NCBI RefSeq assembly: GCF_002854065.1
Contig: NZ_CP024147.1
DNA length: 64,000 bases
Reading direction: 5' to 3' (one strand)
Source: Escherichia coli
GTDB lineage: Bacteria > Pseudomonadota > Gammaproteobacteria > Enterobacterales > Enterobacteriaceae
The first letter of the stretch is position 1; each line of letters begins with the position of its first letter. Below, piece by piece: positions 1 to 40,674 of the stretch. The notes below the pieces were generated by a model, which was given only the letters and a program-made list of their open reading frames with translations, was not told the DNA's origin and made no database searches. The position numbers and the translations under genes are program-made.

Positions 1-1
1 G

Positions 2-352: not shown

Positions 353-366
353 CCTGATGAACGAAT

Positions 367-394
367 AAAGGGAGCGAAAGCTCCCTTTATTATT
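367..394 (+). terminator. Rho-independent terminator after lptG
   Basis: Inverted repeat aaagggagc/gctcccttt followed by a T-run, 15 bp after the lptG stop. Confidence 0.6.
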
Positions 395-512
395 GTTAGC
401 AAAGTGTGCTTCGTTCATGCCTGAAAAATCATGAAAATTCAATATATTGCAGTGGTGTGGGCATGATAAGGCGCGCCAGCGTCGCATCAGGCAAAGACAA
501 ATCGCACCTGGC

Positions 513-2015: not shown

Positions 2016-2092
2016 GAGATATCCTCCAGTTTCCTGCCTGGAGTATAGGCAACGTCCGGCAAAGAGAATACGTGTAATGAAGAGAAAATAAC

Positions 2093-3091: not shown

Positions 3092-3157
3092 AACTTCTCC
3101 CAACGTCGGGGGAATCTTCAATCTTCCCCCGAAACTACATCACAATATTTTATTCTT

Positions 3158-4477
3158 TCAGTGCAATACGGCGTTAATGGCTAACACGCCCAGCAAACCC
3201 ATAATAGAAATAAGGGTTTCCATCACCGTCCAGGTACGCAACGTTTCACCAACCGTCAGATTAAAATACCCTTTAAATAGCCAGAAGCCAGGGTCGTTTA
3301 CGTGTGACGCGATCACGCTGCCCGCACCGGTTGCCAGTACCATTAAAGCGGGATCGGCATGGGTAACGTTGATAATCGGCAACACCACACCCGCGGTGGT
3401 AATGGCCGCGACGGTGGCAGAGCCCAGAGCGATACGCAACAGCGCCGCAACAGTCCAGCACATCAATAACGGCGAAAGCGTAGTTCCGGTCATTAAGTGT
3501 GAAATATAGTGCCCGACACCGCTATCTACTAATACCTGCTTAAACGCGCCGCCGCCAGCGATAATAAACACAATCATCGCGATAGCGCCTATAGAATCCC
3601 CAATGATATCCATGATTTGCTCGATGGTGCGTCCATTACGTCGGCCCAGTGTGAAAATCGCAATAACAATGGCAATAAACAGCGCAACGGCAGGGTTACC
3701 GACAAATTCAAAGAAGAGGCGCACGGTGTTAGTTTTCGGTAACGTAATTTCACAAACGGCGGCGATAGCCATCAGGATGACCGGGATCACGGCAGCGAAA
3801 ATACTGTTCCAGAAGGAGGGCATCTCCTCTTCGCTAAACAGATGAGGATTAAATAAGCCTTCCGGTGGTGCTTTCTCAAAGCGAGTTAGCAGTTTAGAAA
3901 ACAGCGGTCCTGCGACAATAACTGTCGGAATGGTAATGATAAATCCATACAGTAAAGTCGTTCCGAGATTAGCCTCAAAGATAGTCGCGATGGCAGTAGG
4001 CCCTGGATGTGGCGGCAGAAAACAGTGGGTTACAGAGAGCGCTGCTACCATTGGTACGCCAACATACAACAGGGGTAATCCTGATGATGCTACGATGGTA
4101 AATACCAACGGCAACAGCAGGACAAAACCCACTTCAAAAAACATGGCGAGGCCCACAACCAGACCAGTGATCACTAGCGCCCATTGCACGCGTTTTTTAC
4201 CAAAAGTAGCAATCAGCGTAGTGGCGATACGTTGTGCCGCACCCGTATCAGAAATCAGCTTGCCTAACATGGCCCCGAAACCGAGGATCATTGCCAGCCC
4301 ACCGAGCGTGCTGCCGATACCATTTTGTATAGAGTGCAGGACGGCCTGTGCATCCATCCCTTCGGCAAATCCGACGACGGCAGCTACCAGAACGAGGGCA
4401 ATAAAGCCGTTAACTTTAAAGCCGATCATCAGGATAAGAAGCAGCGCGACGCCTGCCGCAATAATGATTAATGGCAT
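3158..4477 (-). CDS. idnT: GntP-family L-idonate/5-ketogluconate/gluconate transporter
   Basis: 439 aa polytopic membrane protein; C-terminal motif [16 protein letters not shown] typical of the GntP family. Confidence 0.85.
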   Translation of the reverse strand: MPLIIIAAGVALLLILMIGFKVNGFIALVLVAAVVGFAEGMDAQAVLHSIQNGIGSTLGGLAMILGFGAMLGKLISDTGAAQRIATTLIATFGKKRVQWALVITGLVVGLAMFFEVGFVLLLPLVFTIVASSGLPLLYVGVPMVAALSVTHCFLPPHPGPTAIATIFEANLGTTLLYGFIITIPTVIVAGPLFSKLLTRFEKAPPEGLFNPHLFSEEEMPSFWNSIFAAVIPVILMAIAAVCEITLPKTNTVRLFFEFVGNPAVALFIAIVIAIFTLGRRNGRTIEQIMDIIGDSIGAIAMIVFIIAGGGAFKQVLVDSGVGHYISHLMTGTTLSPLLMCWTVAALLRIALGSATVAAITTAGVVLPIINVTHADPALMVLATGAGSVIASHVNDPGFWLFKGYFNLTVGETLRTWTVMETLISIMGLLGVLAINAVLH

Positions 4478-4541
4478 AGTCTTTATCTCTTATTAGTGCC
4501 AGAAAAGCAGCGCTTTCGCGCTGCACGTAGGGTAGTAGGTG

Positions 4542-5306
4542 TTAAACAGCCACTAACATGCCGCCATCAACAAACAACAGGTGGCCGTTTACGAAATCAG
4601 AGGCTTTTGAAGAAAGGAACACCGCAGCACCAATCAGTTCCTGCGGATCTCCCCAGCGTGCGGCGGGGGTCCGTTTGCACAACCAGGCGGTGAAGGCTTC
4701 GTCCTCAACCAGTGCTTTAGTCATTTCTGTTTTGAAATAGCCCGGCGCAATACCGTTGACCTGAATATTGTGGCGCGCCAGCTCGACGCACATGCCGCGG
4801 GTGAGCATTTTTACCGCCCCTTTCGATGCGGCATAAGGGGTGATGGTGTCACGTCCCAGTTCGCTTTGCATCGAGCAAATATTAATAACTTTACCTGCCT
4901 TGCGTTCAACCATGTGACGAGTTACTGCTTGCGATACCAGGAACACGGCGGTCTGGTTTACTGCGATCACATCATTCCACTCTTGTTCAGGGAACTCAGT
5001 AAAAGGATGACGGCGCTGGATACCGGCGTTATTCACCAGCACATCAATGGGGCCGATGTCCTTTTCGATATGTTCAACGGCGGCATCAATTTCATGTTTA
5101 TGAGTAACATTAAAAGGTGCGGCAACGGCCTGAATACCCTCCTGGTGGAGTTTTTCTACAGCAAGTTCTGCGCGTTCGGCAGTAATATCATTAATAATTA
5201 TTTGTGCGCCATATTTACCCAGGCCGGTTGCCAGTAAAAAGCCAATGCCCTGTGCTGAACCGGTAATCAAGATATTTTTTCCTGCCAGTGAAAATAGATC
5301 GTTCAT
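4542..5306 (-). CDS. idnO: 5-keto-D-gluconate 5-reductase (SDR family)
   Basis: 254 aa; SDR glycine-rich motif ITGSAQGIG; operon position. Confidence 0.85.
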   Translation of the reverse strand: MNDLFSLAGKNILITGSAQGIGFLLATGLGKYGAQIIINDITAERAELAVEKLHQEGIQAVAAPFNVTHKHEIDAAVEHIEKDIGPIDVLVNNAGIQRRHPFTEFPEQEWNDVIAVNQTAVFLVSQAVTRHMVERKAGKVINICSMQSELGRDTITPYAASKGAVKMLTRGMCVELARHNIQVNGIAPGYFKTEMTKALVEDEAFTAWLCKRTPAARWGDPQELIGAAVFLSSKASDFVNGHLLFVDGGMLVAV

Positions 5307-5329
5307 TGTATTATTCCTTTATTTATCTC

Positions 5330-6361
5330 TTAGAAAACAAGCTGGACTTTTGCTGCCTGGGTTTTATCACCGGCGAAACGTAGCGCCTCTTCCAGGTCAG
5401 TGAAGGGATATTCAGCACTCAGTAAAGGCAGTGGATTGATAACGCCATTCGCCAGCCATGACACTGCGGTATTAAATTCGCTGGTAAAACGGAAAGAGCC
5501 TTTGAGTGAAATCTCCTTACCAATCAATGTCATCATTGGGAATTCTGCCATCGCGCCTCCCATACCTACCTGCACCATTACGCCGCGTGCACGAGTGACC
5601 TCCAGACAGGTATTCACTGATGAAGGATGACCGGACACTTCAAAGCTGACATCGAAATAGCCTTTTTCCGCTTTCCAGTGATCCATGTCGTCGTTTTGTG
5701 GGTTTACGAGCACATCCGCCCCCATCTCTTTACCCAGCGAAAGGGAACGGGGACTCACATCGGCACAGACAATTTCCGCGGCCCCCAGTGTTTTCACAGC
5801 ACTGACAATCAGGCAGCCAATGGGCCCAACACCAGAAATAAATACTCGCTTGCCCTGTAACTCGCCGGCCTGATGTGCGGCATGAATCGCGACGGCTAAA
5901 GGTTCGGCAAAAGCCATAACCTTTTCGTCAGCTTTGGCCGGATAAGGGACACATTGCGACGTTTCGACCATTTTATAACGGGTAAAACCACCATCAACAT
6001 GAGGGAAATACATGGCACTGCCAAAAAAACGCATATCTGTACACTGATTCTCGTTATGTTCAATGCAGTATTTGCAGTGACCGCACGGTTTAGACGGATT
6101 AATGGCTACCGTTTGCCCTTCATGTAATTCTGATGAGTCGCTATGAATAACTTTACCGATAACTTCATGACCTAACACCATCGGTGCCTTTATCATGAAA
6201 TTACCTACTTTTCCTTCCTGATAATAATGTAAATCGGAACCGCAAATTCCACCTCGGGTTATTTGTACTAATGTTCCATTATTATTCCAATCTATCGTCT
6301 GCTCGGTAACGGCAACAGTTTTCTTGCCCGCAACAACGCAGGACTGTGTTTTCACTTGCAT
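5330..6361 (-). CDS. idnD: L-idonate 5-dehydrogenase (zinc-dependent ADH family)
   Basis: 343 aa; GHE...CGxC zinc-ADH motifs (GHEVIGKV, CGHCKYC). Confidence 0.85.
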   Translation of the reverse strand: MQVKTQSCVVAGKKTVAVTEQTIDWNNNGTLVQITRGGICGSDLHYYQEGKVGNFMIKAPMVLGHEVIGKVIHSDSSELHEGQTVAINPSKPCGHCKYCIEHNENQCTDMRFFGSAMYFPHVDGGFTRYKMVETSQCVPYPAKADEKVMAFAEPLAVAIHAAHQAGELQGKRVFISGVGPIGCLIVSAVKTLGAAEIVCADVSPRSLSLGKEMGADVLVNPQNDDMDHWKAEKGYFDVSFEVSGHPSSVNTCLEVTRARGVMVQVGMGGAMAEFPMMTLIGKEISLKGSFRFTSEFNTAVSWLANGVINPLPLLSAEYPFTDLEEALRFAGDKTQAAKVQLVF

Positions 6362-6577
6362 AAATTCCTCACTGGTCAGGTAGACACCTCGGAAGCATTT
6401 AAGCGGTTTTAATTGTTATTATTTGTGATGAAGATCACGTCAGAAAATTGTTACATTACTATGTTACGCATAACGTGATGTGCCTTGTAATTCTTATCAG
6501 CAGAAATAAAAAAACGTGAAATTATTATGCCACCAGGCGTAGTATCGCAGCAGGTAAGATGATTCAGGAGATTTTAA

Positions 6578-7141
6578 ATGGCGGGTGAAAGCTTTATTTT
6601 GATGGGCGTTTCAGGGAGTGGTAAAACATTAATTGGTAGCAAGGTTGCCGCGTTATTATCTGCTAAATTTATTGATGGTGACGATCTTCATCCAGCCAAA
6701 AATATAGATAAAATGTCGCAGGGTATTCCATTATCTGATGAAGATCGACTTCCCTGGCTGGAACGCTTAAATGATGCTTCATACAGTCTTTATAAAAAGA
6801 ATGAAACAGGATTTATTGTCTGTTCATCATTAAAAAAACAGTATCGTGATATTTTACGCAAGGGTAGCCCCCATGTTCATTTCCTCTGGTTAGATGGCGA
6901 CTATGAAACTATTCTCGCGCGAATGCAGCGTCGGGCTGGGCATTTTATGCCGGTAGCGTTACTAAAAAGTCAGTTTGAGGCACTGGAGCGTCCACAAGAA
7001 GATGAACAGGATATTGTGCGCATTGATATCAACCATGATATTGCCAATGTCACTGAACAATGTCGGCAGGCTGTGCTGGCGATACGACAAAACAGAATAT
7101 GTGCGAAAGAGGGCAGCGCCTCAGATCAGCGCTGCGAATGA
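6578..7141 (+). CDS. idnK: Gluconokinase (thermosensitive, GntV)
   Basis: 187 aa; P-loop GVSGSGKT; divergent from idnD across a 216 bp promoter region. Confidence 0.85.
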   Translation: MAGESFILMGVSGSGKTLIGSKVAALLSAKFIDGDDLHPAKNIDKMSQGIPLSDEDRLPWLERLNDASYSLYKKNETGFIVCSSLKKQYRDILRKGSPHVHFLWLDGDYETILARMQRRAGHFMPVALLKSQFEALERPQEDEQDIVRIDINHDIANVTEQCRQAVLAIRQNRICAKEGSASDQRCE

Positions 7142-7144
7142 TTT

Positions 7145-8164
7145 TCAAAAATCGGCTTTCAACACCACGCGGTAACGCGCCTTACCGTCGCGCACATGCT
7201 GGATGGCGTCGTTAATTTTCGACATCGGGAACAATTCGGTAGTCGGCGCAACCTTGCTGCGGGCGGCAAAACGCATCAGCTTACGCAACTCATAAGGCGT
7301 GCCAGTAGCAGAGCCAGAGACACTGCGATCGCCCGCAATTAACGTAAAGGCCGGAACAGACAGCGGCGTGAGAACCGCACCGACCGTATGGAAATTACCG
7401 CCATACGTCAGCGCCTCAAAATAAGGCTGCCAGTCGAGGCTGACGTTCACAGTATTGATAATGAGATCAAACTGCCCCGCCAGAGTTTTCAGTGCCTGCG
7501 GATCGCGGCTATTCACCACTTTATCGGCACCCATCGCCAGTACTTCCTGCTCTTTCGCCGGATTTGAACTAAAGGCTGTCACCTCGCATCCCATTGCGTG
7601 CAGAAGTTTTATAGCGATATGCCCCAGCCCGCCAATACCAATTACCCCAACGCGGCTGGTAGCAGTGATATGGTGCATCAATAGTGGTTTAAAGACCGTG
7701 ATACCGCCGCACAACAGCGGCCCGGCGGACTCGATATCAATATTTTCTGGCAGTGGAATCACCCATTGCCAGTCCGCACGCAACTTCTCGGCAAAGCCAC
7801 CGCGATTCATAATCGTCGGCACCGCACCTTGCTCGCAGTTGATCTGATTACCGCTAATACAGGCGTCGCAGTGACCACAGCTACGCGCCGTCCAGCCAAT
7901 CCCGACACGCTGACCGACCTGCAAACCTTTATCCTGCGCGGCGCTCCCGAGTGCCACCACGCGCCCAATCACCTCATGCCCGGCAACCAGCGGATACTGT
8001 GAAAATCCCCATTCGTTATCGATCATCGACAGATCGGAATGGCAGATCCCGCAGTAATCCACCTGCACTTCAATATCTTGTGGCTTCAGCTCACCGGGAT
8101 CGTACTCATAAACTTCCAGTTCGCCGCCCGCTTCTTTTGCGGCATAGCTTTTTATCATCGACAT
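7145..8164 (-). CDS. ahr: NADPH-dependent aldehyde reductase Ahr (YjgB), zinc-ADH family
   Basis: Zinc-ADH motifs ([15 protein letters not shown]); start placed at the internal Met (MSMIKSYAA) giving 339 aa. Confidence 0.8.
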
Positions 8165-15402: not shown

Positions 15403-16778
15403 TGAGTAAGATTATTCTACCTGAAGGGTGGTCCAATTGTACTCTTGCAGATATTGCTGAAGTTAACCCTAAAAAAATAGAGGCTGAACCTGACATAATT
15501 GCAGGCTTTGTTCCTATGTCTCATGCCCCAACAAACTATTACGGGAAATTAGAGTTTGAAGAAAAGACTTGGGGTGAAATTGGTAAATCTTACACTAACT
15601 TTAAAAATGATGATGTGATTTTTGCAAAAGTAACGCCTTGTTTTGAAAATGGTAAAGCAGCAATTGTAAAAGATATGCCAAATAATATCGGTGCAGGCAG
15701 CTCTGAATTTTATGTTCTACGCGCTCGTAATCAAGAGATACCAGCCAGTTATTTACTTGGGATTATTAAGACCAGAAAATTTATGCAGGAAGGTGCAGAA
15801 AATATGACAGGTGCTGTTGGTCTGCGCCGTGTTCCAAGGGCTTTCGTTGAAAGCTTTCCTTTGATACTTCCCCCTCTTGCAGAACATAAAATCATCGCCG
15901 ATAAACTCGATATTCTGTTAGCACAGGTCGAAAGCGCCAAAGCACGCCTTGAGCAAATACCACAAATCCTGAAGCGTTTTCGTCAAGCGGTGTTGGCATC
16001 TGCGGTGAGTGGAAAATTAATACCAAAGGATCAAAAGTCCAATGTACGATTTGATGTCTCAGTTGGTTCACTTTGTATAACTTCGTTTGATGGCCCTTTT
16101 GGGTCAAAATTAAAAACGGCTGATTATACAAATGCGGGTGTTCGTGTCGCTCGACTAGAAAATATTGGTCATTTAACATTTAATGATGAAAAAGAAACGT
16201 ATATCAGCGATACAAAATTTAATAGCCTAAAAGGAAATAAGCTCGAAAAGGATGATGTGTTATTCTCATCATTTGTAGATGAAGATGTTCGTGTATGTCT
16301 TTTTCCACATAACGATAAAATTTTTATAAACAAGGCAGATTGTTTTTGTTTAAGGATCAATCAAGAAATAGCATCACCAAAATATGTAGCTTTAACATTA
16401 GCAAGCAGAACTTCGTATGAACAAATTAAAGCACAGGTTCAAGGTGTAACACGACCTCGTATTAATTTAAAGACGTTAAGGTCTTTGTCGTTTACGTTTC
16501 CTTCTCTACAAGAACAAAACGAAATTGTTCGCCGCGTAGAACAACTCTTCGCCTATGCTGATGGCATCGAAAAGCAGGTACACAACGCCCTTGAGTGCGT
16601 CAACAACCTCACACAGTCGATTCTGGCTAAAGCATTTCGTGGGGAACTCACGGCGCAATGGCGTGCAGAAAATCCCGATTTAATTAGTGGTGAAAATAGC
16701 GCACAAGCATTACTGGTGAAAATTCAACAGCAGCGCAAAAACATAAAAAATATCAAACGCAACAAGGGTAATAATTGA
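15402..16778 (+). CDS. hsdS: Type I restriction-modification specificity subunit (two target-recognition domains)
   Basis: 458 aa; start overlaps the hsdM stop (TGATG); central and C-terminal conserved repeat regions between two variable TRDs. Confidence 0.85.
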   Translation: MSKIILPEGWSNCTLADIAEVNPKKIEAEPDIIAGFVPMSHAPTNYYGKLEFEEKTWGEIGKSYTNFKNDDVIFAKVTPCFENGKAAIVKDMPNNIGAGSSEFYVLRARNQEIPASYLLGIIKTRKFMQEGAENMTGAVGLRRVPRAFVESFPLILPPLAEHKIIADKLDILLAQVESAKARLEQIPQILKRFRQAVLASAVSGKLIPKDQKSNVRFDVSVGSLCITSFDGPFGSKLKTADYTNAGVRVARLENIGHLTFNDEKETYISDTKFNSLKGNKLEKDDVLFSSFVDEDVRVCLFPHNDKIFINKADCFCLRINQEIASPKYVALTLASRTSYEQIKAQVQGVTRPRINLKTLRSLSFTFPSLQEQNEIVRRVEQLFAYADGIEKQVHNALECVNNLTQSILAKAFRGELTAQWRAENPDLISGENSAQALLVKIQQQRKNIKNIKRNKGNN

Positions 16779-18481
16779 TGCGACTGATTTCTTTAGATTT
16801 GAGAGGCAGCTACAAAGGCTTGAAAGATCAATTCTTTGACTTCAGTTATGCCCAAGATAATATAATTGCATTGATTGGCCTTAATGGTTCTGGTAAATCT
16901 CAATTGCTTGAGTTAATCGGAGAAACTTTTGCTTATCTAGAGCGATGGCAACGTGCAGAGTTCAAAAATAAAACATCGTTAGGTTTTAGCGTCGCGGTAC
17001 ACTATCAATGGGATCTTAGAAATGATAGTGCTGTTATATCTTACCCAGACGAGCTCATGAATCATGGTGAGAGCATTGAGCTAAAGGTAACTATTGAGCT
17101 TGACGGCGATGTGTTTTTAAATGTTCGTGGTACTTATGAGTGGCATGTAATACAGCTTGGTGAGCGCCATTTCCCCATCCCTCTCGTGGTTGGTTATGCT
17201 TCGGGGCTAAACGAAAATTTACAGCGAAGTTTTATGAAAAATGCTGTGCAATATTTTGAAGTCCGTCGAATTAGTAGCCAGCGTCTAAAAATGCTATCAC
17301 GAGAAATTAATGATGAACAGTTGGCTGAAATCAATAAGAAGTATCTTAAAAAATACCCACACATATTTGATCCTTTATCAGAAGGTGATTTTTTTCCAAA
17401 TTATCACCTGAATTTGAGAGAAGTGAATCCTGCCCCTAGCAATTTTAACTATCTTGATTACGATAATATTGGGCTCTTAATTTTATCGCTATCGATTCTT
17501 CCGGCTGGGACAGTATTTCAACTATTAGATGAAATAACATATAAACATCCTGTCAAAGCTGTACTTCATTACGACTTTCGTTCTGGCATCATAGAAGATG
17601 ATGCCATTCGTGATGTGAAAATGTTGATCCGTATAGCAGGCTCCGATCAAGTAAGGCCAACAGGAGGCCGAACTACAGATAACCAGTATGAACTTTATGA
17701 GTTAGAATATCTGTCTGGAGAAATCACTCTCGAATTAAGTGATGAGGCTGTTTTAAACCGACTTCGTGAAGATAACTACTTTGATTCTTTCGCATTATTT
17801 AAAAGACTTAATAATATTCAACAGCTTGGCATAAAGAACTGGGATCGTACATCTCGTTTGAAATTGATGAAAGATGATTTTATAGGTACGGTAAAAAAAC
17901 CGCTTCAGTCAAGGTTACCTTTATCTGTTGTTGAGTTATTAATGGCTAATGAACAGGGCGATACCGTGAAGTTTGATGATTTATCTGACGGTGAAGCTCA
18001 ATTGATTCAGGTTGTTGCCGCAACAAGGATATTCAGTCAGGTTCAAGCGCTATTTCTTTTTGATGAGCCAGAAACACACCTTAATCCGTCTTGGCGTACC
18101 TATTTTCATCAGCGTTTAACTGAAGCATTTACACCTGGAAATGAGAGGAAAGGTCAATCGCAATTCTTTCTATCTACTCACTCACCATTCATGATTTCCT
18201 CGCTCAAACGCGAGAATGTATTTTTCTTCGAGCGTAGTGATATGGGTTGTATCAGTATGGAACCGGTGTCCAGCCAGACTTATGGCACATCATTTGATGT
18301 CTTGGTTAAGAACCACTACGGTCTGCGTTCCCTTATTTCACAGACAGTGGTGAAGGATGTTAAAAATCGATTACCAGAAGATAATAATCCTGAAGCAGTT
18401 ATAGCTGCGCGACTCTGGATTGAGGAAAATCTGGGAGAATCAATGGAAAAGGCTTATCTGCTAAGGAAACTAGATAGCTAA
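16778..18481 (+). CDS. ABC-type (AAA_15/AAA_21-like) ATPase, PtuA-like, coupled to hsdS
   Basis: Walker A GLNGSGKSQ near the N-terminus, Walker B LFLFDEPETHLNP and H-loop LSTHSPF near the C-terminus, with a long insert between; ATG overlaps the hsdS stop (TGATG). Confidence 0.6.
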   Translation: MRLISLDLRGSYKGLKDQFFDFSYAQDNIIALIGLNGSGKSQLLELIGETFAYLERWQRAEFKNKTSLGFSVAVHYQWDLRNDSAVISYPDELMNHGESIELKVTIELDGDVFLNVRGTYEWHVIQLGERHFPIPLVVGYASGLNENLQRSFMKNAVQYFEVRRISSQRLKMLSREINDEQLAEINKKYLKKYPHIFDPLSEGDFFPNYHLNLREVNPAPSNFNYLDYDNIGLLILSLSILPAGTVFQLLDEITYKHPVKAVLHYDFRSGIIEDDAIRDVKMLIRIAGSDQVRPTGGRTTDNQYELYELEYLSGEITLELSDEAVLNRLREDNYFDSFALFKRLNNIQQLGIKNWDRTSRLKLMKDDFIGTVKKPLQSRLPLSVVELLMANEQGDTVKFDDLSDGEAQLIQVVAATRIFSQVQALFLFDEPETHLNPSWRTYFHQRLTEAFTPGNERKGQSQFFLSTHSPFMISSLKRENVFFFERSDMGCISMEPVSSQTYGTSFDVLVKNHYGLRSLISQTVVKDVKNRLPEDNNPEAVIAARLWIEENLGESMEKAYLLRKLDS

Positions 18482-19647
18482 TGTTATTTTCACTTAATCC
18501 ACAGACGCCTCAATGTTCGGTATTTGCATTTCTTAATGCTGAATTTCTTCATTTTTTGCAAGCTACTATTAATGCTGATGTATTCTCAGAAAACTTATTC
18601 CGCACTTTTCCTGAGATGATTGAAGATACAGAAGTACTTGTCCCTAGTGTATGTTGGAGTAATGAGCCCACAAGAGAGAAATTTCTTGGGTTATGGGAAG
18701 CGCGGCCTACGACCGTTGCGCAGCGACGGGAGTTGTCAGACCAAATAAGTCAGGCTCAGGATATTAATGTATTTTTCAACAATACCCAAGCTGTATTGCC
18801 GCAATTAGTACCAGCCTCTTTATTCGAAGCATGTAAGGCGTTAACAACTCATTTGTTTACACGTACCAAAGATCTAGCTCAAGCAAAGTCACAATCCAAT
18901 AGTTCTATTGAAAAACATTATCAGAATTTCGTCAGAGAAAATAATAATAGCCATCTATGTCCTATTTGTGGCACTGCACTTCTCTCTCAAAATCGAGAAA
19001 GCGTAGCAGAGGAAGAACAATGGCGATCAGATTATGACCACATTCTTTGCAAAGATAAATATCCAGTTTACAGTGTCCATCCAGGAAACTTCATTCCGAC
19101 TTGCCATATTTGTAATAGTAAAGCTAAAGGGGCAAGGGACTTACTGAATACTGTTGGTCTCCAGAGACGATTAGCATTTTATCCACTTCCCCCATCACAA
19201 GAGTCATGTGAGCAATTTGTTGTGGTATCGCTTCACCTCAGTGACCGTAGAGATTTAATTGTGAATAGTTGGGAAACACCGTTGGAGTCAGCATCCATTT
19301 TATTCCCCAGAGCTCCAGCTGACATAGTAGATAAAATAGGTGTATGGAAAGAAGTTTATAAAGTACCAGAAAGAGTTGAACAGCATCTTAAGGTCAACTT
19401 TTGCGAGCGTATAGCCGCTGATCTACGACCAGTAAGCTTTGATGATTTCTGTGAGCAATTACATAGATATTCGAGACAAATGCCAGCAGACTATAGAAAA
19501 TCGGAATGGAGGTTTTGGTGGCAGAAAGTCTATGAATTCTTATCAGATCAAAATAGAGACTATTTACACGATGTGTGGATATTAATTGCCTGGAAATTAA
19601 GGTTATCAAATGATGCTGATATGGCTGATACGTTTAATCAAATTTAA
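18481..19647 (+). CDS. HNH endonuclease, PtuB-like partner of the ATPase
   Basis: HNH motif CPICG...DYDHI...NFIPTCHICNSKAKG; start overlaps the ATPase stop (TAATG). Confidence 0.6.
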   Translation: MLFSLNPQTPQCSVFAFLNAEFLHFLQATINADVFSENLFRTFPEMIEDTEVLVPSVCWSNEPTREKFLGLWEARPTTVAQRRELSDQISQAQDINVFFNNTQAVLPQLVPASLFEACKALTTHLFTRTKDLAQAKSQSNSSIEKHYQNFVRENNNSHLCPICGTALLSQNRESVAEEEQWRSDYDHILCKDKYPVYSVHPGNFIPTCHICNSKAKGARDLLNTVGLQRRLAFYPLPPSQESCEQFVVVSLHLSDRRDLIVNSWETPLESASILFPRAPADIVDKIGVWKEVYKVPERVEQHLKVNFCERIAADLRPVSFDDFCEQLHRYSRQMPADYRKSEWRFWWQKVYEFLSDQNRDYLHDVWILIAWKLRLSNDADMADTFNQI

Positions 19648-19675
19648 ATTTTACTTCAACAGGGTGAGAGTATTG

Positions 19676-20848
19676 TTACTCTCCCTTTTTAAAATACATT
19701 GTAGAAGGTGCGCTTATTACTACGCAACCATCAATGCCTTTTATCTTCAATACCCCTTCCTTGAATTTAACATGTTCTTGTGTTGCTCGAGTGCAGTCCC
19801 ACAGGAAGCTGATGATATACGAATCCTTATATTTTTCGTCGACACGATAAAGTGACGCATCTTCTGCAATTTCTCCTATTAGTGCAGGAAACGATTTTTT
19901 TGTATCTTTTCGGTATTTTACTTCAATAATTGTGTGCAGTGATGGCAGATAAAGGTCTATGCGGGGGTTTTTTTGTCCGACAGGCTGAAGATTCACCTCA
20001 TCTGCAATATCGTTGAATATTGGCGCAAGTAGGATATAAAGCAGATTCTGAACATGATATTCATTTTCAACTTGCCACTTTACGGGCTCTGCGCCTCTGG
20101 TTCGACCTGAGTCCTCCCATGTCCATCGTTTTAACCCTGCAGGGATATGTTCCAGAAATCCTAGCAGGTCATCCAGTGTCCATCCAGACGGTGGAGCAAT
20201 GGCAATTTCCTGATTAATTTGATTAAAAACGTAAAGCATTACACACAAGAGAGTAACTGAAGGATTTTCTGTAGCTTGTGCTTGAAATTCGCTCATGAAA
20301 CGTCCGACAAGAGAAAGTCGGTTCTGATGACTATTGATCTTCAATAACTTTCGATAATGAAGGAAGAGTGGTATGCAGGCACTACTAAAGGAGGCTGATT
20401 CGCTGTTACCGACATATGCCGCGATATCTTTCTCGAAGATACTTAGATGGTTGCTTTCAATTTGCTGAGCCAGAAACCCTGAAATCCACTTTTCGAACTC
20501 GTGATTTATGCTCTCATCTTGCATCTGTGCCGTTAGCCATTTCACTGCCATTACACCGAACATATCCGATACCCAAGGTCTCGGTGTTGAATCAATCTTG
20601 GGAGCTTGTCCGAGCAGGCGAGAGACATCCTGGACCGAGACAGTTTCATCTAGAATACCTAAACCTGAAATTGCACAGCGTTGGTATAAAGATAGGTCCG
20701 CAAAGCTAAAATTCGTAATGCAGCTTTTATCTCCTTCCAGGAGACTAAAAAAGCAGGACTTAAATGGATCAATGTGAGCGGATTCGATCACCTTACTGTG
20801 AAAATAGTCGCGTAGCTGATAAACGTTTTCTTTCTCTATAGGAACCAT
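19676..20848 (-). CDS. PD-(D/E)xK-type nuclease-like protein, candidate pAgo-associated effector
   Basis: 390 aa; C-terminal motif PRIDLYLPSLHTIIEVKYRK (D...ExK); start overlaps the end of the pAgo reading frame by 13 bp. Confidence 0.5.
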   Translation of the reverse strand: MVPIEKENVYQLRDYFHSKVIESAHIDPFKSCFFSLLEGDKSCITNFSFADLSLYQRCAISGLGILDETVSVQDVSRLLGQAPKIDSTPRPWVSDMFGVMAVKWLTAQMQDESINHEFEKWISGFLAQQIESNHLSIFEKDIAAYVGNSESASFSSACIPLFLHYRKLLKINSHQNRLSLVGRFMSEFQAQATENPSVTLLCVMLYVFNQINQEIAIAPPSGWTLDDLLGFLEHIPAGLKRWTWEDSGRTRGAEPVKWQVENEYHVQNLLYILLAPIFNDIADEVNLQPVGQKNPRIDLYLPSLHTIIEVKYRKDTKKSFPALIGEIAEDASLYRVDEKYKDSYIISFLWDCTRATQEHVKFKEGVLKIKGIDGCVVISAPSTMYFKKGE

Positions 20849-21271
20849 TGTGAATGCCCTATTTTTCCAATCATGACTGAGTCACTCCAGCCCGGAAGCT
20901 GATTCAACCATCCTAAATTATGGGCGATAAGATCGGAATAAGTGATGGTAACTGGCATGGGATTGGGGAAGTAACTACGCCAGGAGTGTGATGCGAAACT
21001 GTAGAGCTGAGCACTCAAATACTTAATATCTTTGAAGGTCGAGTCTTTATGAACGTTGACGATCACACCACGTGGATGACCGTCCGTTTCTTGTCGTAAT
21101 TCACGTTGGCCGATCAGGTAAACAAGCATTTCGTTTTTAGAAAGCTTAAACGTATTTCCGCGATGTGTCGCCAGGCGTCCTAGACTGGCCCCCTGAATCT
21201 CCAGACAACCAATATCACTTAAATAAGTGATAGTCTTAATACTAGTTTTTAGACTAGTCATTGGAGAACAG

Positions 21272-21637
21272 ATGATTGATGTCTTAGGGCCGGAGAAACG
21301 CAGACGGCGTACCACACAGGAAAAGATCGCAATTGTTCAGCAGAGCTTTGAACCGGGGATGACGGTCTCCCTCGTTGCCCGGCAACATGGTGTAGCAGCC
21401 AGCCAGTTATTTCTCTGGCGTAAGCAATACCAGGAAGGAAGTCTTACTGCTGTCGCCGCCGGAGAACAGGTTGTTCCTGCCTCTGAACTTGCTGCCGCCA
21501 TGAAGCAGATTAAAGAACTCCAGCGCCTGCTCGGCAAGAAAACGATGGAAAATGAACTCCTCAAAGAAGCCGTTGAATATGGACGGGCAAAAAAGTGGAT
21601 AGCGCACGCGCCCTTATTGCCCGGGGATGGGGAGTAA
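21272..21637 (+). CDS. insC: IS2 transposase OrfA (InsC)
   Basis: [33 protein letters not shown]... matches IS2 InsC. Confidence 0.9.
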
Positions 21638-22500
21638 GCTTAGTCAGCCGTTGTCTCCGGGTGTCGCGTGCGCAGTTGCACGTCATTCTCAGACGAACCG
21701 ATGACTGGATGGATGGCCGCCGCAGTCGTCACACTGATGATACGGATGTGCTTCTCCGTATACACCATGTTATCGGAGAGCTGCCCACGTATGGTTATCG
21801 TCGGGTATGGGCGCTGCTTCGCAGACAGGCAGAACTTGATGGTATGCCTGCGATCAATGCCAAACGTGTTTACCGGATCATGCGCCAGAATGCGCTGTTG
21901 CTTGAGCGAAAACCTGCTGTACCGCCATCGAAACGGGCACATACAGGCAGAGTGGCCGTGAAAGAAAGCAATCAGCGATGGTGCTCTGACGGGTTCGAGT
22001 TCTGCTGTGATAACGGAGAGAGACTGCGTGTCACGTTCGCGCTGGACTGCTGTGATCGTGAGGCACTGCACTGGGCGGTCACTACCGGCGGCTTCAACAG
22101 TGAAACAGTACAGGACGTCATGCTGGGAGCGGTGGAACGCCGCTTCGGCAACGATCTTCCGTCGTCTCCAGTGGAGTGGCTGACGGATAATGGTTCATGC
22201 TACCGGGCTAATGAAACACGCCAGTTCGCCCGGATGTTGGGACTTGAACCGAAGAACACGGCGGTGCGGAGTCCGGAGAGTAACGGAATAGCAGAGAGCT
22301 TCGTGAAAACGATAAAGCGTGACTACATCAGTATCATGCCCAAACCAGACGGGTTAACGGCAGCAAAGAACCTTGCAGAGGCGTTCGAGCATTATAACGA
22401 ATGGCATCCGCATAGTGCGCTGGGTTATCGCTCGCCACGGGAATATCTGCGGCAGCGGGCTTGTAATGGGTTAAGTGATAACAGATGTCTGGAAATATAG
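21595..22500 (+). CDS. insD: IS2 transposase OrfB (InsD, DDE integrase domain)
   Basis: 301 aa ORF overlapping insC in the -1 frame; DDE transposase. Confidence 0.9.
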
Positions 22501-24987
22501 GGGCAAATCCACGTCCTTTCGACATAGTCGCCGTTGAAGAGTCGAACATGTGGAGTCCGTGATTCTCTGAGATTTTTACGAAGGCATACTCGATCTGATA
22601 ATCTCTATACTTGTCGATTACCGCACGGACTGCCTGAATCTCTTCCTTATTGAACTTTTTGACTTGTACATGGAAAATTAAGCGAATCGTATCGCCTTTC
22701 TGCCAGTTCATTCGCCTTTGTATTTTTTCTATATTCTCGGCCAGAACAGAGGTTAGAGCGTCGCAGTAAGCTTCCGGTACAACGGCTTTGGACGTACTCG
22801 AGACAATGTAACTACCGTCTCCCGAAAATACGGTGGTGATTCCCATAATGCGCTGATTATGGGCACCACGCTCTTGGACTATATTTGCACTGCCAATACC
22901 GATCACGAGTTCATGGGATAGTGTTGGCGATGATTTGAGTAGCCACGGGACTCCACCCATCTTCGCATAGCAGGCCAGTGACATGTTATTAAGCGAGTAG
23001 CCGAGTGAATAATCAGACTGCGTTAGCAGCTCTATTGTGAAATCCTGTACAGGAACTTGGTGCAAGTAAAATAGGCTTTTACCAAGATAGTAAGGATTAT
23101 CAGCAACTTTGAGTTTTTTAAATGACTGCCGCACCTGTACGAGGGCCAGATCCCAACGTCCTCCTTCATCAGCTTTTTTGCGTATTGCAGCTTCGATGGC
23201 ATTTTTGTATGCATCGACGCTGTCTGTGGATGTTTCGAACACTTCAACACGACTGGTTCCAAGTGCAAATTTACCCTCAAGGCCATTTCTGAAATATTTG
23301 CTATTAGCAATGCCTTTCAGAAGCTTACGGACGAACTGCTCGACTCGCCCTTTGTCATGTTGGGCGCAGATCACGCAGATTGATGGATCGTTCCTATCGA
23401 AGGTACGCTTTGTATAGGGGCCATTTTGTGTAAGACCCTTCTCAGTCCAATCTGCTTCACCGTTATCGTTGAAGACGAACACCGGCTTTTGCATCTGTGC
23501 ACAATCTTTTTGAATATCGGATGGATCCTCAATTTCGATACGCGTTCCATCGAGCAGCGAGATGTTTGTCGCTTGGATATACTTCTTAAGGGCGTCGATG
23601 CGGTCTTTTTTATTCTCGCCTCCGTTGAAAATGGAAACGGACTGCCGAATATGTTCGACAATGGAGTCTTTCTTCGTACCATGCGTATGAAGGATGTAGT
23701 CGTCAAAATTAGCTCGACTAGCTTCGAGATAAACGTCTTTAGCCTCAGCATGAACTGCTTGGCCGTCGGGACGAATGACACTCAGAGTTCTCCCTTCGTG
23801 GCAGCTTTCTACAAACCCTAAAAGTTTTCTAAATCCGTCGTCCTGCTCGGTGACGACGTAGCGACCAATAACATTGAATCCGGTTTTTAGGAAAAACAGG
23901 CAGTTCTCTTTTACTACACGACGTGTTGAGCAATCAATTATAAGACACGGCTGACCTTGGACAGTACGAGTGTCGATTGAATACTTGGCACAAATTTTTA
24001 AGGGATAAGCCTCACCAAGAATTGAGGCTAAAAGATTGTCTTTTGGTTTGGCACTTACCACCTCGATAGGATTGAAGCCGCAAGGAGTTCGACCCAATCC
24101 AGCGAAGTGCTTGAGCAGACCATCTTTAACCAGAGAGCAAAAGGTTCCCAAATTATCCTTTAGTTGCAGTGTCTGCGGTGTACCAGGTTTGGGGAACGTA
24201 CCATCACTCGAAAAAATCTGAATATTGTCACCCTGACGCCGGAAGACGTGCGTCACTTTATGGGAGGAGCGGAGGCTATCTAGAGTCGTCTTGTCGTAGG
24301 GGATCTGGACAAATTTCAACTCCAATTCAGGGATTTTCAGTGGAAACGCATTCAGGACAATCGGCAAGACCCACCCCTTTTGTGTTAGTGAAAAATCCAA
24401 CATACTGCGTCTCGATAATTATTCCCAGTCAGGGATGTGCTGGCACCTGACTGGCGCTCGCTGTGGGTTCCCTCCATCCGACTCTGGAAATAACTGTTTC
24501 AACAATTAATTTTCCTACACTGTAGCGTAAATTTTCTTAAGGCTCCCAAAGCGATTATTTAACTCTTTAAACTAATCTAATGTAAAGACTAGGGAAATGA
24601 TACGAGTGTAGTCTATGTCTTCGCTGTGATGAGGATCTATTCTTCGGTGTACATAGGGGTACTTAAGTTCCGATATAACACTCAACCAGCCTAAATTACA
24701 TCTGCAGGATCTCATGATTAAAATGATCTATGTGGTAGGTCATTAAATGGAGTAACCGGTCTCTCATAGGCAGGCGTAAGCCACCCCTGAGGGGCAGACA
24801 GATGCCATGCAGTTGAATGGTTTAAAGGGTTTGAGAGGGTGATAGTGCTGCGGTTGTCACACTATAGAGTTCTGGCGTAAAAACAGTCAGGCATCTCGGC
24901 ATTTATCAACTCGTCCAACGCTCCTCTGAAATTTGCGGGATCGGTTTAGTTTCAGGTGGGGGCGCTGAGGCCCCCGATTTATCGTAC

Positions 24988-25380
24988 TCAGGATTGTGCG
25001 GTGTAATAGACCAAAGCCAGCTTGTTGCCATCGGGGTCTCTAACATAAGCGCTGTAGAAACCTTCGCCGTAATGCGGGCGCAGGCCAGGTGCTCCCTCGT
25101 CCGTGCCTCCTTGGTTTAAAGCGAGCGCGTGAAGCTGCTGGATATGTTCGGCAGTGCGGGCAATCAGGGCGACCATCACACCATTTCCGGTTGTGGCATC
25201 CTGTTTATCAAAAGGTATGCCGATACCCAGTGCCGTCGTGTTATTACCGTTGAAAACGCCCAGCTACGCGACGTCCTCATTCCTGCCACAATGGGTATAG
25301 CTCTGCATCTCCATGAACGGATAGTCGAATGTGAGGGCATGTGGCTGGTAGTTTGTTTTAAGCATAATGTAAGAAAACAT
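24988..25380 (-). pseudogene. VOC (glyoxalase/bleomycin-resistance) family gene remnant
   Basis: Paralogous to the intact VOC gene at 28022-28414 (same MFSY start, HIQQLHALAL and YVRDPDGNKLA motifs) but interrupted in frame. Confidence 0.5.
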
Positions 25381-37085: not shown

Positions 37086-38903
37086 CTACCTTAAACCTGC
37101 CCCTCTCATTCGCTCCTCCAGTTCATCCAGAAATGGGGAACGCCCTAGACGCATAGGGCCGTAGCGACCATCAACAAAACCGGAATACAGCATATGCACC
37201 TCGTCCCGTGCGCGGGTCAGCCCCACATAGAAAAGACGTCGGCTTTCACGCAGCTTCTCTGGCGTCTCATTACGCCACGGCAAATTCCCCAGATCTAAGC
37301 CGACCATGATAACCACGTCATATTCGCAACCTTTGGCTGAGTGAAGTGTCAGCAAATTGAGGTGCTCAGGTGAACCGTCACGACCACCTAGGCTCGTGAT
37401 ATCCAACATCGCTAACGCACCGCCTTCGGCAAGTGCTGCAGTCATGCGATCTAGTTGCTCAGCCTGATCAGAAAGCGTTGGTTCAGTTGCCAGCAGGGAA
37501 TCAACGAGACCGTTGCGCAACGACGCGACAAAATCGGATGCAGAATGTTGGTCGGCACGAAGTGCCCAAAGTAGCCTGGTTAACTCCTGCCCCTTACTCC
37601 GGGCGCATGCATCATCCAGCCTTGCCCGATGAAATGCCAGATAACGGTCTATAAGTCCGCGCAGTTGAGGGCGCCCGATACGCCAACCGCCAGCACACCA
37701 TGCTGCGCAATCCTCCACCCAGCTCGTCAAGGCAACTTTGCGATAAGGTGCTGCGGTATCCACACGAATGTAATCAAAACCGCTAGCTGTCACCGCATCG
37801 GCCACAACATCGCCGGCACGGTAGTCCTTGTACAGAATGGCGATATCACCCAGTGTTCGGCCCGGCTTAGCAGCCAACGCAGCAGGAATAATCTGCTCGA
37901 CAGCATAGACAGCCTGATCCCCCAAGCCATCCGGACACAGCTGGAACGCAATGGTTGTCTGGCGGTTTGGGTCGTTTGCGCGATAACCACGAACCTCACC
38001 CAACACCATCTCCGATGCATTCACGATGTCCGCTCCTGATCTATAGTTCAACTGGAGCCGGACTGTTTCAACGTCTCTCCTGCCTGCCAGTTCTAGTAGT
38101 AACGCACCATCGGCACCAGTGAAACCGTAAATAGATTGGTCTGCATCACCCACTGCAAATAAGCGTACGCCTCCCTCGAAAGCCAGACGTTTGACCATAC
38201 GATGGAGTGCCACGCCCAAATCTTGATATTCATCTACCGCAAGGATCGGAAATTTCGCCTGTACTAGGGGCAGAACCCAATCATGCTCAATTATCAGACG
38301 CTGACCAAATATCACCATATCGTCGTAGTCTATCAGCCCTTGCTGCCGCAATGCAGCTTCGTAGGCCTCGGCCCATGCAGCGAGTTCCTCCTCTGTACGC
38401 CAGGCAACGCTGTTGCGATTCAACACCGAACGGCGATGCCGTCCGAGATCAATAGCCTTATAGGGATGGTTTGCGCCAAAGAGACGGTCACCAGATTGTC
38501 GAAGTAACCGTTCGCTCTCGCGCTGAGACGCTACTGACAGCGGAAATGGGATTGGCAGATCGGCCAGTCGCCCATAGGGCATCAACAGATGGCGCAAGCA
38601 GAACCCATGAACGGTTCCAATAAAGAGATTCGGTGCCTCTCTAAGCCCCAGCGCTTCGAGACGACGGGTTAGCTCGCGTGCGCATTCTTGGCTATATGTG
38701 ATACATGCCGCACCACGTGGAGCTTGAACATCCTCAGCTAGGATTCGTGCCAGCTTCAGCACAAGCGTCTTTGTCTTACCACTCCCCGGGCCCGCGAGCA
38801 CCACGCAGTGTCCCTGGGAGTGATACGCGGATAACTGGCCCGGATTCCCGGCCAGCTCGGCAGCCTGAGCTAAGTAGGCTGCACTGACACTACGTGACGG
38901 CAT
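37086..38903 (-). CDS. gajB: UvrD/PcrA-family SF1 helicase, GajB-like
   Basis: Motifs VLAGPGSGKTKTL (Walker A), ILAVDEYQDLG (motif II), AVGDADQSIYGFTGA (motif III); start set at the ATG overlapping the upstream gene by 14 bp. Confidence 0.7.
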   Translation of the reverse strand: MPSRSVSAAYLAQAAELAGNPGQLSAYHSQGHCVVLAGPGSGKTKTLVLKLARILAEDVQAPRGAACITYSQECARELTRRLEALGLREAPNLFIGTVHGFCLRHLLMPYGRLADLPIPFPLSVASQRESERLLRQSGDRLFGANHPYKAIDLGRHRRSVLNRNSVAWRTEEELAAWAEAYEAALRQQGLIDYDDMVIFGQRLIIEHDWVLPLVQAKFPILAVDEYQDLGVALHRMVKRLAFEGGVRLFAVGDADQSIYGFTGADGALLLELAGRRDVETVRLQLNYRSGADIVNASEMVLGEVRGYRANDPNRQTTIAFQLCPDGLGDQAVYAVEQIIPAALAAKPGRTLGDIAILYKDYRAGDVVADAVTASGFDYIRVDTAAPYRKVALTSWVEDCAAWCAGGWRIGRPQLRGLIDRYLAFHRARLDDACARSKGQELTRLLWALRADQHSASDFVASLRNGLVDSLLATEPTLSDQAEQLDRMTAALAEGGALAMLDITSLGGRDGSPEHLNLLTLHSAKGCEYDVVIMVGLDLGNLPWRNETPEKLRESRRLFYVGLTRARDEVHMLYSGFVDGRYGPMRLGRSPFLDELEERMRGAGLR

Positions 38904-40674
38904 CGCAGATATACTCCAGTGCTTCACGAATGTAATCCGGGCATACATCCTCCGACACCGAGGGTGCCAGCGCTTGGGCGAACCGCCCTTTGCCAATTCG
39001 CTCAATCAGTTTCAACAACCGGACATTATCAAGCTGGTCCGTGTCATCCACCCACGCCTGTATCCTGTTCAGAGTAGCTCGTCTAGGAGACAATTCCTGC
39101 TCGATAACCAACTTCATGGCTTCGCCCAGTCCACCGGTAAACAGCTCTGGCTCCAGAGTGGTCTCATTGACGAAGCATCCAAAATCTCCGGCACGTGCAA
39201 TCACCTCCTCGGTAGTCATATCATCATGATCAACATCGCTCTCAAGCACGTCTAAGATATTGATAAATCTCTTACGAACCAGCGGCTCTCCATCCTCCTC
39301 AGGATCGCGGTCTGTCAGAATCACATGTGGAATATTGAGTCCCCGCGGCCCTAGGAGCTTCACATACGGAGTGAAATTTGTTCCACCGATCGAGCACACC
39401 GTGATCCCAAGCATATCTAGGGGAATATTAAGAGCATCAGCGAATGCTGGGACAAGAAAGCGTTCAGCATCCCCTTCCACCAAGATCACCCCACGTGAAA
39501 AGAATATTTCGCCGCGAGTGACATCGATATAGCGCTGCAGATCATCTTCGTCCCGCGGCGTAAACGGTGCGTTTGCCGTTGAAACCGCAATCGTCTTCCC
39601 TCCCTCCGGATCATGGCGCAGCAAAACGATGGATCTGATTGGTGTGACGCTGGCGATATGCGGGGAATGGGTGGTCAGGATCGTTGTCAACGGTGTTCCT
39701 TCATCACCATTGTCTCCGTCAGTCCCTAGGAAATAACGGTAAACCAGGCGCTGTACGTGCGGATGTAGGTGCGCTTCCGGCTCCTCGACTACGAAAAACG
39801 TATGGTCTCGTTCTCCGTCATTAACAAGACGATCAAGTTCGAGGCTTTTTAGGGCAAGAAAAATCAGATTAGCTGTCCCCAGACTGGCATCGCCAATGCC
39901 ACGAATGCCACTATCAAGCAGCAAACGCAGGCTACGTAGCAGCGCATCAACGCGAGTCGGTGCAAGTCCGAGCGATACCGGAACGGCATGTTGCTCACCT
40001 GCGATAGCTATCAACCTTTCGCTAATTCGTTCGGCTGTCGCTGCCACCTCATCATGATCAGCCAGTTCCCGTTGAGCCTCATCAACTTGGGTTTGAATCT
40101 CCTCACGAGTCTCGTCGTCCAGAGATGCGGACAGTTCTTCAATAAGCGGTCTTAAGGGTGAATTACGCCAGCTTGAAAGGTCCTTCTCGGCATCACGCAA
40201 CGCGCCTTGAACATCAATGGGCAACATACGGCGAAAGGCACCACCAATATGCATGTCAGGATCAGCTCCACCGAAGATCACATACTCATAATCTTTTAAC
40301 GATTCAGGAGCTCGATTTAACGCGGTTTTGGGCTGAAAGCGGTAGGTAAGACGGGCCACCATCGGAGGCCCCGGATTTAGGACACAGTCATTCAGATGAG
40401 CCATCAATCGGGGATCGTCAGTGAACTCAGTAAGATCCACTGAAATTTCGATGGTCTCCCCCAGTTTGTCTTCGCCCAATCCATCCCAAAAATGTTCAAA
40501 ACCCAGTTGACGGTCACGCTCAGACAACCCTGGGTCAAGAATCAGCTGCAGGCCGCGAATAAAATTGCTCTTGCCAACCTTGTTTTCACCAACAATAACA
40601 ATACTCTCACCCGTTTCAACATCAACATCGGAGAAGTTGGCGAAATTAATTAACCGGATTCGGGAAATCCGCAT
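38890..40674 (-). CDS. gajA: OLD-family ATPase with C-terminal TOPRIM nuclease domain, GajA-like
   Basis: N-terminal ABC ATPase (IRLINFANF, GENKVGKSN, VVEEPEAHLHP, LTTHSP) and C-terminal TOPRIM (VILVEGDAERFLVPAF). Confidence 0.7.
   Translation of the reverse strand: MRISRIRLINFANFSDVDVETGESIVIVGENKVGKSNFIRGLQLILDPGLSERDRQLGFEHFWDGLGEDKLGETIEISVDLTEFTDDPRLMAHLNDCVLNPGPPMVARLTYRFQPKTALNRAPESLKDYEYVIFGGADPDMHIGGAFRRMLPIDVQGALRDAEKDLSSWRNSPLRPLIEELSASLDDETREEIQTQVDEAQRELADHDEVAATAERISERLIAIAGEQHAVPVSLGLAPTRVDALLRSLRLLLDSGIRGIGDASLGTANLIFLALKSLELDRLVNDGERDHTFFVVEEPEAHLHPHVQRLVYRYFLGTDGDNGDEGTPLTTILTTHSPHIASVTPIRSIVLLRHDPEGGKTIAVSTANAPFTPRDEDDLQRYIDVTRGEIFFSRGVILVEGDAERFLVPAFADALNIPLDMLGITVCSIGGTNFTPYVKLLGPRGLNIPHVILTDRDPEEDGEPLVRKRFINILDVLESDVDHDDMTTEEVIARAGDFGCFVNETTLEPELFTGGLGEAMKLVIEQELSPRRATLNRIQAWVDDTDQLDNVRLLKLIERIGKGRFAQALAPSVSEDVCPDYIREALEYICDAVT

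Follow-up and report, generated by a model that had tools for sequence, protein, structure and literature searches.

IS2 interrupts the Argonaute gene of an EcBPAN defence operon in Escherichia coli

The window that we analysed, a 64,000-nt stretch of an Escherichia coli genome (NCBI RefSeq assembly GCF_002854065.1, contig NZ_CP024147.1), carries a two-gene operon in which an Argonaute gene lies upstream of a PD-(D/E)XK nuclease gene, in a defence island that adjoins the leuX tRNA-Leu gene. Neighbouring genes there include hsdRMS, Gabija and a Septu-like pair. An IS2 element divides the Argonaute gene into a long 5' part that runs into the element as a chimeric ORF and a detached 3' remnant, beyond which the nuclease gene follows undamaged (Table 1).

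Table 1. Features of the interrupted operon and of the IS2 copy inside it, in window positions
Feature	Positions	Strand	Remarks
bAgaN nuclease gene, intact, 390 aa	19676-20848	-	PD-(D/E)XK; downstream of Argonaute
Orphaned Argonaute 3' remnant	20836-21180	-	codons 632-743, C-terminal third of PIWI, plus duplicated GGACG
Target-site duplication CGTCC, left copy	21176-21180	.	sequence; single copy in the VTB96935v empty site
IS2 (IS3 family), complete copy	21181-22511	+	1331 bp; 100% identical full-length to annotated copies
IS2 IRL, 42 bp	21181-21222	+	TAGACTGG...CACTTAA; alignment; fits description in PMC3299598
IS2 orfA, 121 aa	21272-21637	+
A6G slippery site (AAAAAAG)	21589-21595	+	sequence; feature described in PMC3299598
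IS2 orfB frame, 301 aa	21595-22500	+	DDE/rve catalytic part; identical copies annotated IS2 family transposase
IS2 IRR, 41 bp	22471-22511	+	ends ...GGGGCAAATCCA; alignment of ends
Target-site duplication CGTCC, right copy	22512-22516	.	sequence
Interrupted Argonaute ORF, 689 aa	22334-24403	-	EcAgo residues 1-631 plus 58 IS2-coded; stop 22336-22334

The nuclease gene that a sequence-only reading of the window had placed downstream of the Argonaute is indeed present as an intact EcbAgaN ORF, with its ATG and the Argonaute stop overlapping by 13 nt. Its product matches Pfam DpnII-MboI (5.5e-43), the PADLOC model Aga_Helical-REase (3.7e-132) and the EcbAgaN chain of PDB 23wq (1.9e-260), and it is 97% identical to the EcbAgaN described from E. 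coli CAP29 (379 of 390 residues, that is, with eleven substitutions), residues D298, E309 and K311 of the D-EVK motif being kept. When IS2 and one CGTCC are removed in silico, the Argonaute flanks rejoin into a 743-aa ORF identical to WP_197986481.1 of E. coli VTB96935v. This reconstructed protein matches PADLOC pAgo_II over residues 16-743 (9.6e-293) and shows three substitutions over 731 residues relative to EcAgo of PDB 23wq. By sequence, the broken gene is that of EcAgo, the long-B Argonaute of EcBPAN. The prototype long-B protein, RsAgo of Rhodobacter sphaeroides (PDB 5awh, 6d8a and others), is, EcAgo aside, the nearest homologue with a solved structure (E ~9e-71, the alignment running from residue 163 to the C-terminus), but it is a distant homologue from a different system, and the window protein goes with EcAgo by identity.

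EcBPAN, which consists of EcAgo and EcbAgaN, was described in E. coli CAP29 as an abortive-infection system (Song et al., 2023, Nat Commun; PMC10620215). EcAgo, classed as a catalytically inactive long-B Argonaute, acts as an RNA-guided DNA sensor and activates EcbAgaN, which degrades the chromosome; on its own, EcbAgaN shows no activity at physiological salt and barely affects viability, and its activation requires guide- and target-loaded EcAgo (PMC10620215). From its near-identity to EcAgo, the PIWI domain of the Argonaute encoded here would be catalytically inactive as well. The operon resembles that of CAP29 in its gene order, in the class of its nuclease and in the catalytic residues, but differs in that the Argonaute is split by IS2 after codon 631, and the system is predicted to be non-functional.

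The element itself is unremarkable. Matching copies in other E. coli genomes are annotated 'IS3-like element IS2 family transposase', and in length, sequence, terminal repeats, the orfA/orfB arrangement with its A6G site and the 5-bp duplication the copy is like reference IS2 without any difference, its particular feature being the insertion site. The ends of the copy align as imperfect terminal repeats (IRL TAG...TTAA, IRR TGGATT...TTAA), and the ends of IS2 have been described as a 42-bp IRL (TAG...TTAA) and a 41-bp IRR (TGGATT...TTAA), with the A6G site giving the -1 frameshift that yields the OrfAB transposase (PMC3299598). A near full-length IS2 copy occurs in 4058 of 5426 complete E. coli genomes and the element is multicopy in most E. 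coli genomes, with a median of 4 places per genome; the window holds one. The same window also holds an IS1 copy, within fimH.

The junctions read ...GCCAGGCGTCC / TAGACTGGCCCCC...(IS2)...GGGGCAAATCCA / CGTCCTTTCG, and the perfect CGTCC duplication that had been proposed to flank IS2 is confirmed to the base; the odds of a chance 5-bp match are ~1/1024. Uninterrupted alleles exist in E. coli VTB96935v and other assemblies. In VTB96935v the island is 99.9% identical and its 743-aa Argonaute gene unbroken, and the empty site on the chromosome reads GCCAGGCGTCCTTTCG, with a single CGTCC. Together, the 5-bp duplication, the exact IS ends and this empty site bear out the earlier view that the insertion is a simple transposition. 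We consider it highly probable that a recent transposition of IS2 into the EcAgo gene broke EcBPAN. A resident IS2 would have entered the EcAgo gene at codons 630-631, with CGTCC as its target, leaving the 5-bp duplication through its known copy-out, paste-in pathway via a minicircle. The insertion looks recent and strain-specific, since the IS2 is identical to other copies, the nuclease is undamaged and the operon, once IS2 is taken out, matches that of other E. coli assemblies (L008, L013, L015 and L017) at 100% identity. A megablast search of the nuclease plus 3' remnant against the 5426 complete E. coli genomes matched only VTB96935v, where the gene is intact.

What the insertion does to the Argonaute can be followed codon by codon. 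The first 630 codons are native; codon 631, although split across the junction, remains an Arg codon, and 58 IS2-coded codons follow before a stop 178 nt inside the element, which agrees within one codon with the run of 59 codons into IS2 that had been counted before. Pfam Piwi covers residues 444-718, and the truncation thus falls within PIWI, as had been read from the sequence; 112 C-terminal EcAgo residues are detached and 58 unrelated residues put on in their place. A 159-aa ORF leads from IS2 into the Argonaute 3' remnant. Neither this ORF nor the 689-aa chimeric ORF has an exact product on record in the assembly collection queried. Restart of translation in the 3' remnant appears unlikely, as the in-frame ATG in the IS2 left end lacks, by eye, a recognisable Shine-Dalgarno sequence. 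The EcAgo product is expected neither to fold nor to load guide RNA and recognise its target, although a truncated Argonaute may have residual or dominant-negative activity. Because the Argonaute activates an otherwise inert EcbAgaN, EcBPAN is almost certainly null in the source strain, and because EcbAgaN needs loaded EcAgo, the break would disarm the system regardless of nuclease transcription. The loss of function can thus be explained without any polar effect on the nuclease. The suggestion that the insertion silences a toxic effector has to be modified, as EcbAgaN alone is reported to be non-toxic (PMC10620215).

It is possible, if doubtful, that the insertion is an adaptive loss of function, with plasmid-bearing (CloDF13/ColE1-type) or autoimmune lineages selecting EcBPAN knock-outs. 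Expression of EcBPAN together with a CloDF13-origin plasmid leads to cell death and plasmid loss, while no protection was seen against T5, T7 or lambda-vir (PMC10620215), and the nuclease gene is broken independently in three of ~24-26 long contigs with an intact Argonaute: by an IS3 at codon 82 (L005), by W242stop (L010) and by a frameshift from a 1-bp deletion at codon 207 (L011). A fourth candidate, a nuclease called as 291 aa in L006, was rejected as a gene-calling artefact, the DNA encoding the full 390-aa ORF. These knock-outs lend some support to the earlier notion of recurrent inactivation in defence loci; the loci were dereplicated by neighbourhood, which favours variants, and 3 in 24 should not be read as a frequency. 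However, the Argonaute is intact in 24 of 24 long contigs with an identical nuclease, and the IS1 in fimH points to IS elements that are active in general and not to targeted selection. We regard it as unlikely that several independent natural EcBPAN knock-outs, the IS2 insertion among them, have been selected because ColE1/CloDF13-type origins trigger host killing. If this were true, conflict between defence and plasmids would be settled by losing the defence system, often via IS mutagenesis.

The transposition that we favour probably also reduces expression of the nuclease, a polar effect to which we give a somewhat better than even chance. The 13-nt overlap of the two genes suggests translational coupling, and 1485 nt between the premature Argonaute stop and the nuclease ATG are left untranslated. 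This interval has 28% C vs 23.5% G and contains several C>G windows, taken here as a proxy for Rho loading sites, the strongest at 20998-20915. Ribosomes would stop 1485 nt before the nuclease start, so that coupling would be lost and C-rich untranslated RNA exposed to Rho. In the gal operon of E. coli, classical IS2 insertions are polar in a Rho-dependent manner, and a 1985 study by Yarulin and Gorlenko (cited in PMC12095673) reportedly, by its title, dealt with polar IS2 insertions. As in gal, IS2 sits in the first gene of the operon here and the distal gene needs transcription through the element. IS2 is also antiparallel to the operon, as had been noted, with orfA/orfB on the plus strand and the Argonaute ORF on the minus strand, an arrangement that we take to be the strongly polar 'orientation I' of IS2.

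Continued expression of the nuclease, through read-through or driven by a weak promoter located in the 3' remnant or at the left end of IS2, with an orphan EcbAgaN in a residual or new role, seems improbable to us. Many strains share the undamaged nuclease ORF in identical form, but an intact ORF is expected anyway after a recent event. Consensus-only scans of 19500-25000, whose hits were no more numerous than in shuffled sequence and which could thus have missed a weak internal promoter, predicted no minus-strand intrinsic terminator within IS2 or from the premature stop to the nuclease, which would favour read-through; on the other hand, they found no minus-strand match to a consensus sigma-70 promoter at 22494-20848, from the IRR junction to the nuclease start, a result that also counts for polarity. 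The sole minus-strand promoter match near IS2 (22522-22494, 9/12 matches) straddles the IRR junction and reads into IS2, and the known outward -35 of IS2, which sits in IRR, faces away from the nuclease. Even if it were expressed, EcbAgaN by itself reportedly lacks activity at physiological salt and is not toxic (PMC10620215). An assembly artefact, in which a collapsed or misplaced repeat was put into the Argonaute gene, has a negligible chance. Although most E. coli genomes have several IS2 copies and such repeats often confuse assemblers, misassembly would not make a perfect 5-bp duplication, the size that IS2 produces, at exact termini, nor would the flanks then rejoin into an unbroken ORF that equals a natural allele; given the duplication, the exact ends and the natural empty site, both chance and artefact can in practice be dismissed.

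Both IS2 and EcBPAN have been described before, and the transposition into the EcAgo gene is as an event an ordinary IS gene disruption of low novelty. It does provide a natural null allele, resolved to the base, for an Argonaute-based abortive-infection system whose biochemistry has been studied. For genome-based inventories of defence systems it is a caution, as a tool that counts the nuclease and a fragment of the Argonaute could report the system as present though it is predicted to be non-functional. Together with the otherwise identical intact alleles, the null allele could act as an isogenic-like pair for the costs and benefits of EcBPAN in wild E. coli.

By its protein matches, the operon that is interrupted in the source strain is EcBPAN (Song et al. 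2023, PMC10620215), the two-gene system in which the RNA-guided sensor EcAgo is paired with the PD-(D/E)XK nuclease EcbAgaN. The Argonaute matches the EcAgo chain of PDB entry 23wq across all 731 residues with three substitutions and is called pAgo_II by PADLOC (9.6e-293). The downstream 390-aa protein, which the sequence-only reading had rightly taken for a nuclease, is called Aga_Helical-REase (3.7e-132), matches the EcbAgaN chain of the same entry and has, by Pfam, a restriction-endonuclease-like DpnII-MboI domain (residues 234-382). Its ORF is undamaged, 379 of its 390 residues are identical to published EcbAgaN, and D298, E309 and K311 are all present. In the published work EcAgo takes up small RNAs with a 5' phosphate and, once it has recognised complementary single-stranded DNA, switches on EcbAgaN, whose degradation of genomic DNA is lethal to the cell; the trigger was the CloDF13 origin, no protection was observed against T5, T7 or lambda-vir, and neither EcAgo alone nor EcbAgaN alone affected viability much (PMC10620215). 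A protein search with the intact Argonaute also returned long-B Argonautes of the EcAgo type (about 730 aa) that share 76-85% identity and whose source names span very different bacteria: Herbaspirillum, Methylomicrobium, Desulfobulbus, Pseudomonas aeruginosa, Nitrospira and Acidobacteriaceae. Such conservation is unusually high for a defence protein and would imply wide, recent horizontal spread.

The interrupting element is a 1331-bp IS2 at 21181-22511 (first bases TAGACTGGCCCCCTGAATC, last bases GGGGCAAATCCA; window 21000-22700 read and sliced by script), abutted by CGTCC on the left (21176-21180) and on the right (22512-22516). When aligned, its termini correspond to the published 42-bp IRL and 41-bp IRR of IS2, and its ORFs run antiparallel to the Argonaute ORF; coordinates, duplication and orientation are thus as first read from the sequence. 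Among 5426 complete genomes of E. coli, megablast recovered full-length copies at 100% identity, annotated as 'IS3-like element IS2 family transposase', and near full-length IS2 in 4058 genomes, with a median of 4 places in each.

That this was a simple transposition, as had been proposed, is borne out by intact alleles. Removal of IS2 and one CGTCC in silico regains a 743-aa ORF, and the flank that holds the nuclease gene and the Argonaute 3' remnant has a match in just one complete genome of E. coli, that of strain VTB96935v (NZ_CP178662.1; chicken, South Africa), where the empty site reads GCCAGGCGTCCTTTCG with CGTCC once only. The intact 'argonaute/piwi family protein' annotated there (WP_197986481.1) is identical to the Argonaute reconstructed from the window, and the window aligns to that chromosome at 99.87-99.98% either side of IS2. 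Uninterrupted alleles are found elsewhere too: by exact-sequence look-up the intact protein is indexed in 681 blocks of public assemblies, a 743-aa Argonaute lies upstream of the identical nuclease in all 24 long contigs carrying that nuclease, and the operon minus IS2 is 100% identical to the operon of four other assemblies (L008, L013, L015, L017). Since in silico rejoining, the natural empty site and identical intact operons agree, the insertion is real. Exact-product look-up in the assembly collection found no record of the 689-aa chimeric product or of the 159-aa ORF that runs from IS2 into the Argonaute remnant; the insertion probably happened recently and, within the collections searched, is specific to the source strain.

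Codons 1-630 of the interrupted ORF are native, codon 631 spans the junction with its Arg retained, and 58 IS2-coded codons then lead to a stop, within one codon of the 59 first counted. Because the Pfam Piwi domain covers residues 444-718, the break after residue 631 falls inside PIWI, as had been claimed. The last 112 Argonaute residues are detached, with 58 unrelated residues in their place. In Argonautes the C-terminus lies against the 5'-phosphate pocket of MID. Loss of a third of PIWI together with the native C-terminus should abolish sensor function, so that the EcBPAN system of the source strain is very probably null.

The sequence-only reading also had the insertion probably silence the nuclease gene by polarity. 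The nuclease ATG sits 13 nt within the end of the Argonaute ORF, an overlap that suggests translational coupling. Since ribosomes now terminate at 22334, the 1485 nt from there to the nuclease ATG are left untranslated. This interval contains 28% C and 23.5% G, with several windows at a C/G of at least 1.5 (maximum 3.4 at 20998-20915), features that resemble Rho-loading sites, and polar IS2 insertions in gal are classically Rho-dependent. A consensus scan of the minus strand found no intrinsic terminator, nor any consensus sigma-70 promoter from the IRR junction to the nuclease start. IS2 has a known outward-facing -35 in IRR, and here it points away from the nuclease. Taken together, it appears reasonably likely that the insertion is polar on the nuclease gene. 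The system would lose its function even without polarity, since EcbAgaN is inert in the absence of its Argonaute (PMC10620215); this is the main correction to the earlier reasoning.

Coordinates of the IS2, Argonaute, island and knock-out features (window positions, or positions in the named E. coli locus)
Feature	Position	Strand	Remark
orfA (IS2)	21272-21637	+	
orfB (IS2)	21595-22500	+	
A6G frameshift site (IS2)	21589-21595	+	
Interrupted Argonaute ORF	24403..22334	-	689 aa
hsdR, hsdM, hsdS			type I restriction-modification system
Septu-like ATPase and partner	16775-19647	+	adjoins and convergent with nuclease gene
Gabija system	37086-40674	-	GajA + GajB
GajA	38890-40674	-	5.8e-234
GajB	37086-39005	-	2.3e-258
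PDC-S02 candidate	47044-48051		1.8e-81
L005 (GCA_900449205.1)	6464-7721		1258-bp IS3 at nuclease codon 82
L010	operon position 3144		nuclease W242stop
L011	operon position 3039		1-bp deletion at nuclease codon 207

The operon lies in an island that adjoins tRNA-Leu (leuX) and ahr and contains a tyrosine integrase. Its order is hsdR/hsdM/hsdS, a Septu-like pair, the disrupted EcBPAN operon and, further on, Gabija and a PDC-S02 candidate, a content that marks it as a predicted multi-system defence island. The pair consists of a 568-aa PtuA-like AAA ATPase (5e-44) and a 388-aa partner with weak PDC-M62B/PtuB-like matches, which makes it a candidate two-gene defence system resembling Septu or PDC-M62. 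A VOC-family gene just upstream of the EcAgo operon (16053-16445 in the VTB96935v locus, equivalent to about 24988-25380 in the window after the IS2 shift) is annotated in VTB96935v as a pseudogene containing an internal stop. VTB96935v lacks the idn operon that the window has at about 2055-7144. Because the island (7600-34516) is 99.9% identical to VTB96935v whereas the flanking core genes within 1-7600 are less so (yjgR 94.8%, ahr 96.7%), the island is likely to have moved horizontally between separate lineages of E. coli.

DNA comparison of places with an intact Argonaute revealed three independent nuclease knock-outs (at L005, L010 and L011), which do not represent a frequency since the places compared were dereplicated. 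L011 also has an IS3-family transposase gene just upstream of Argonaute. The truncated nuclease of another locus, L006, was rejected, its short gene call being an artefact by the same comparison. The three knock-outs are compatible with a carriage cost of EcBPAN, for example through conflict with ColE1/CloDF13-type plasmids, and equally compatible with ordinary accessory-gene decay. The window holds a second IS-mediated gene disruption, a 768-bp IS1 (62226-62993) flanked by the 9-bp duplication TAATTCGAG (62217-62225 and 62994-63002) in fimH, the type 1 fimbrial adhesin gene, which is uninterrupted in VTB96935v.

The earlier observation is accurate, and the empty-site control and the exact identity of the disrupted system are now added to it. 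IS2 and EcBPAN are both already characterised, insertion sequences commonly disrupt accessory and defence genes, and novelty is low. The value that is left lies in a natural pair of intact and null alleles, and in the hint that EcBPAN, an abortive-infection system, is repeatedly lost.
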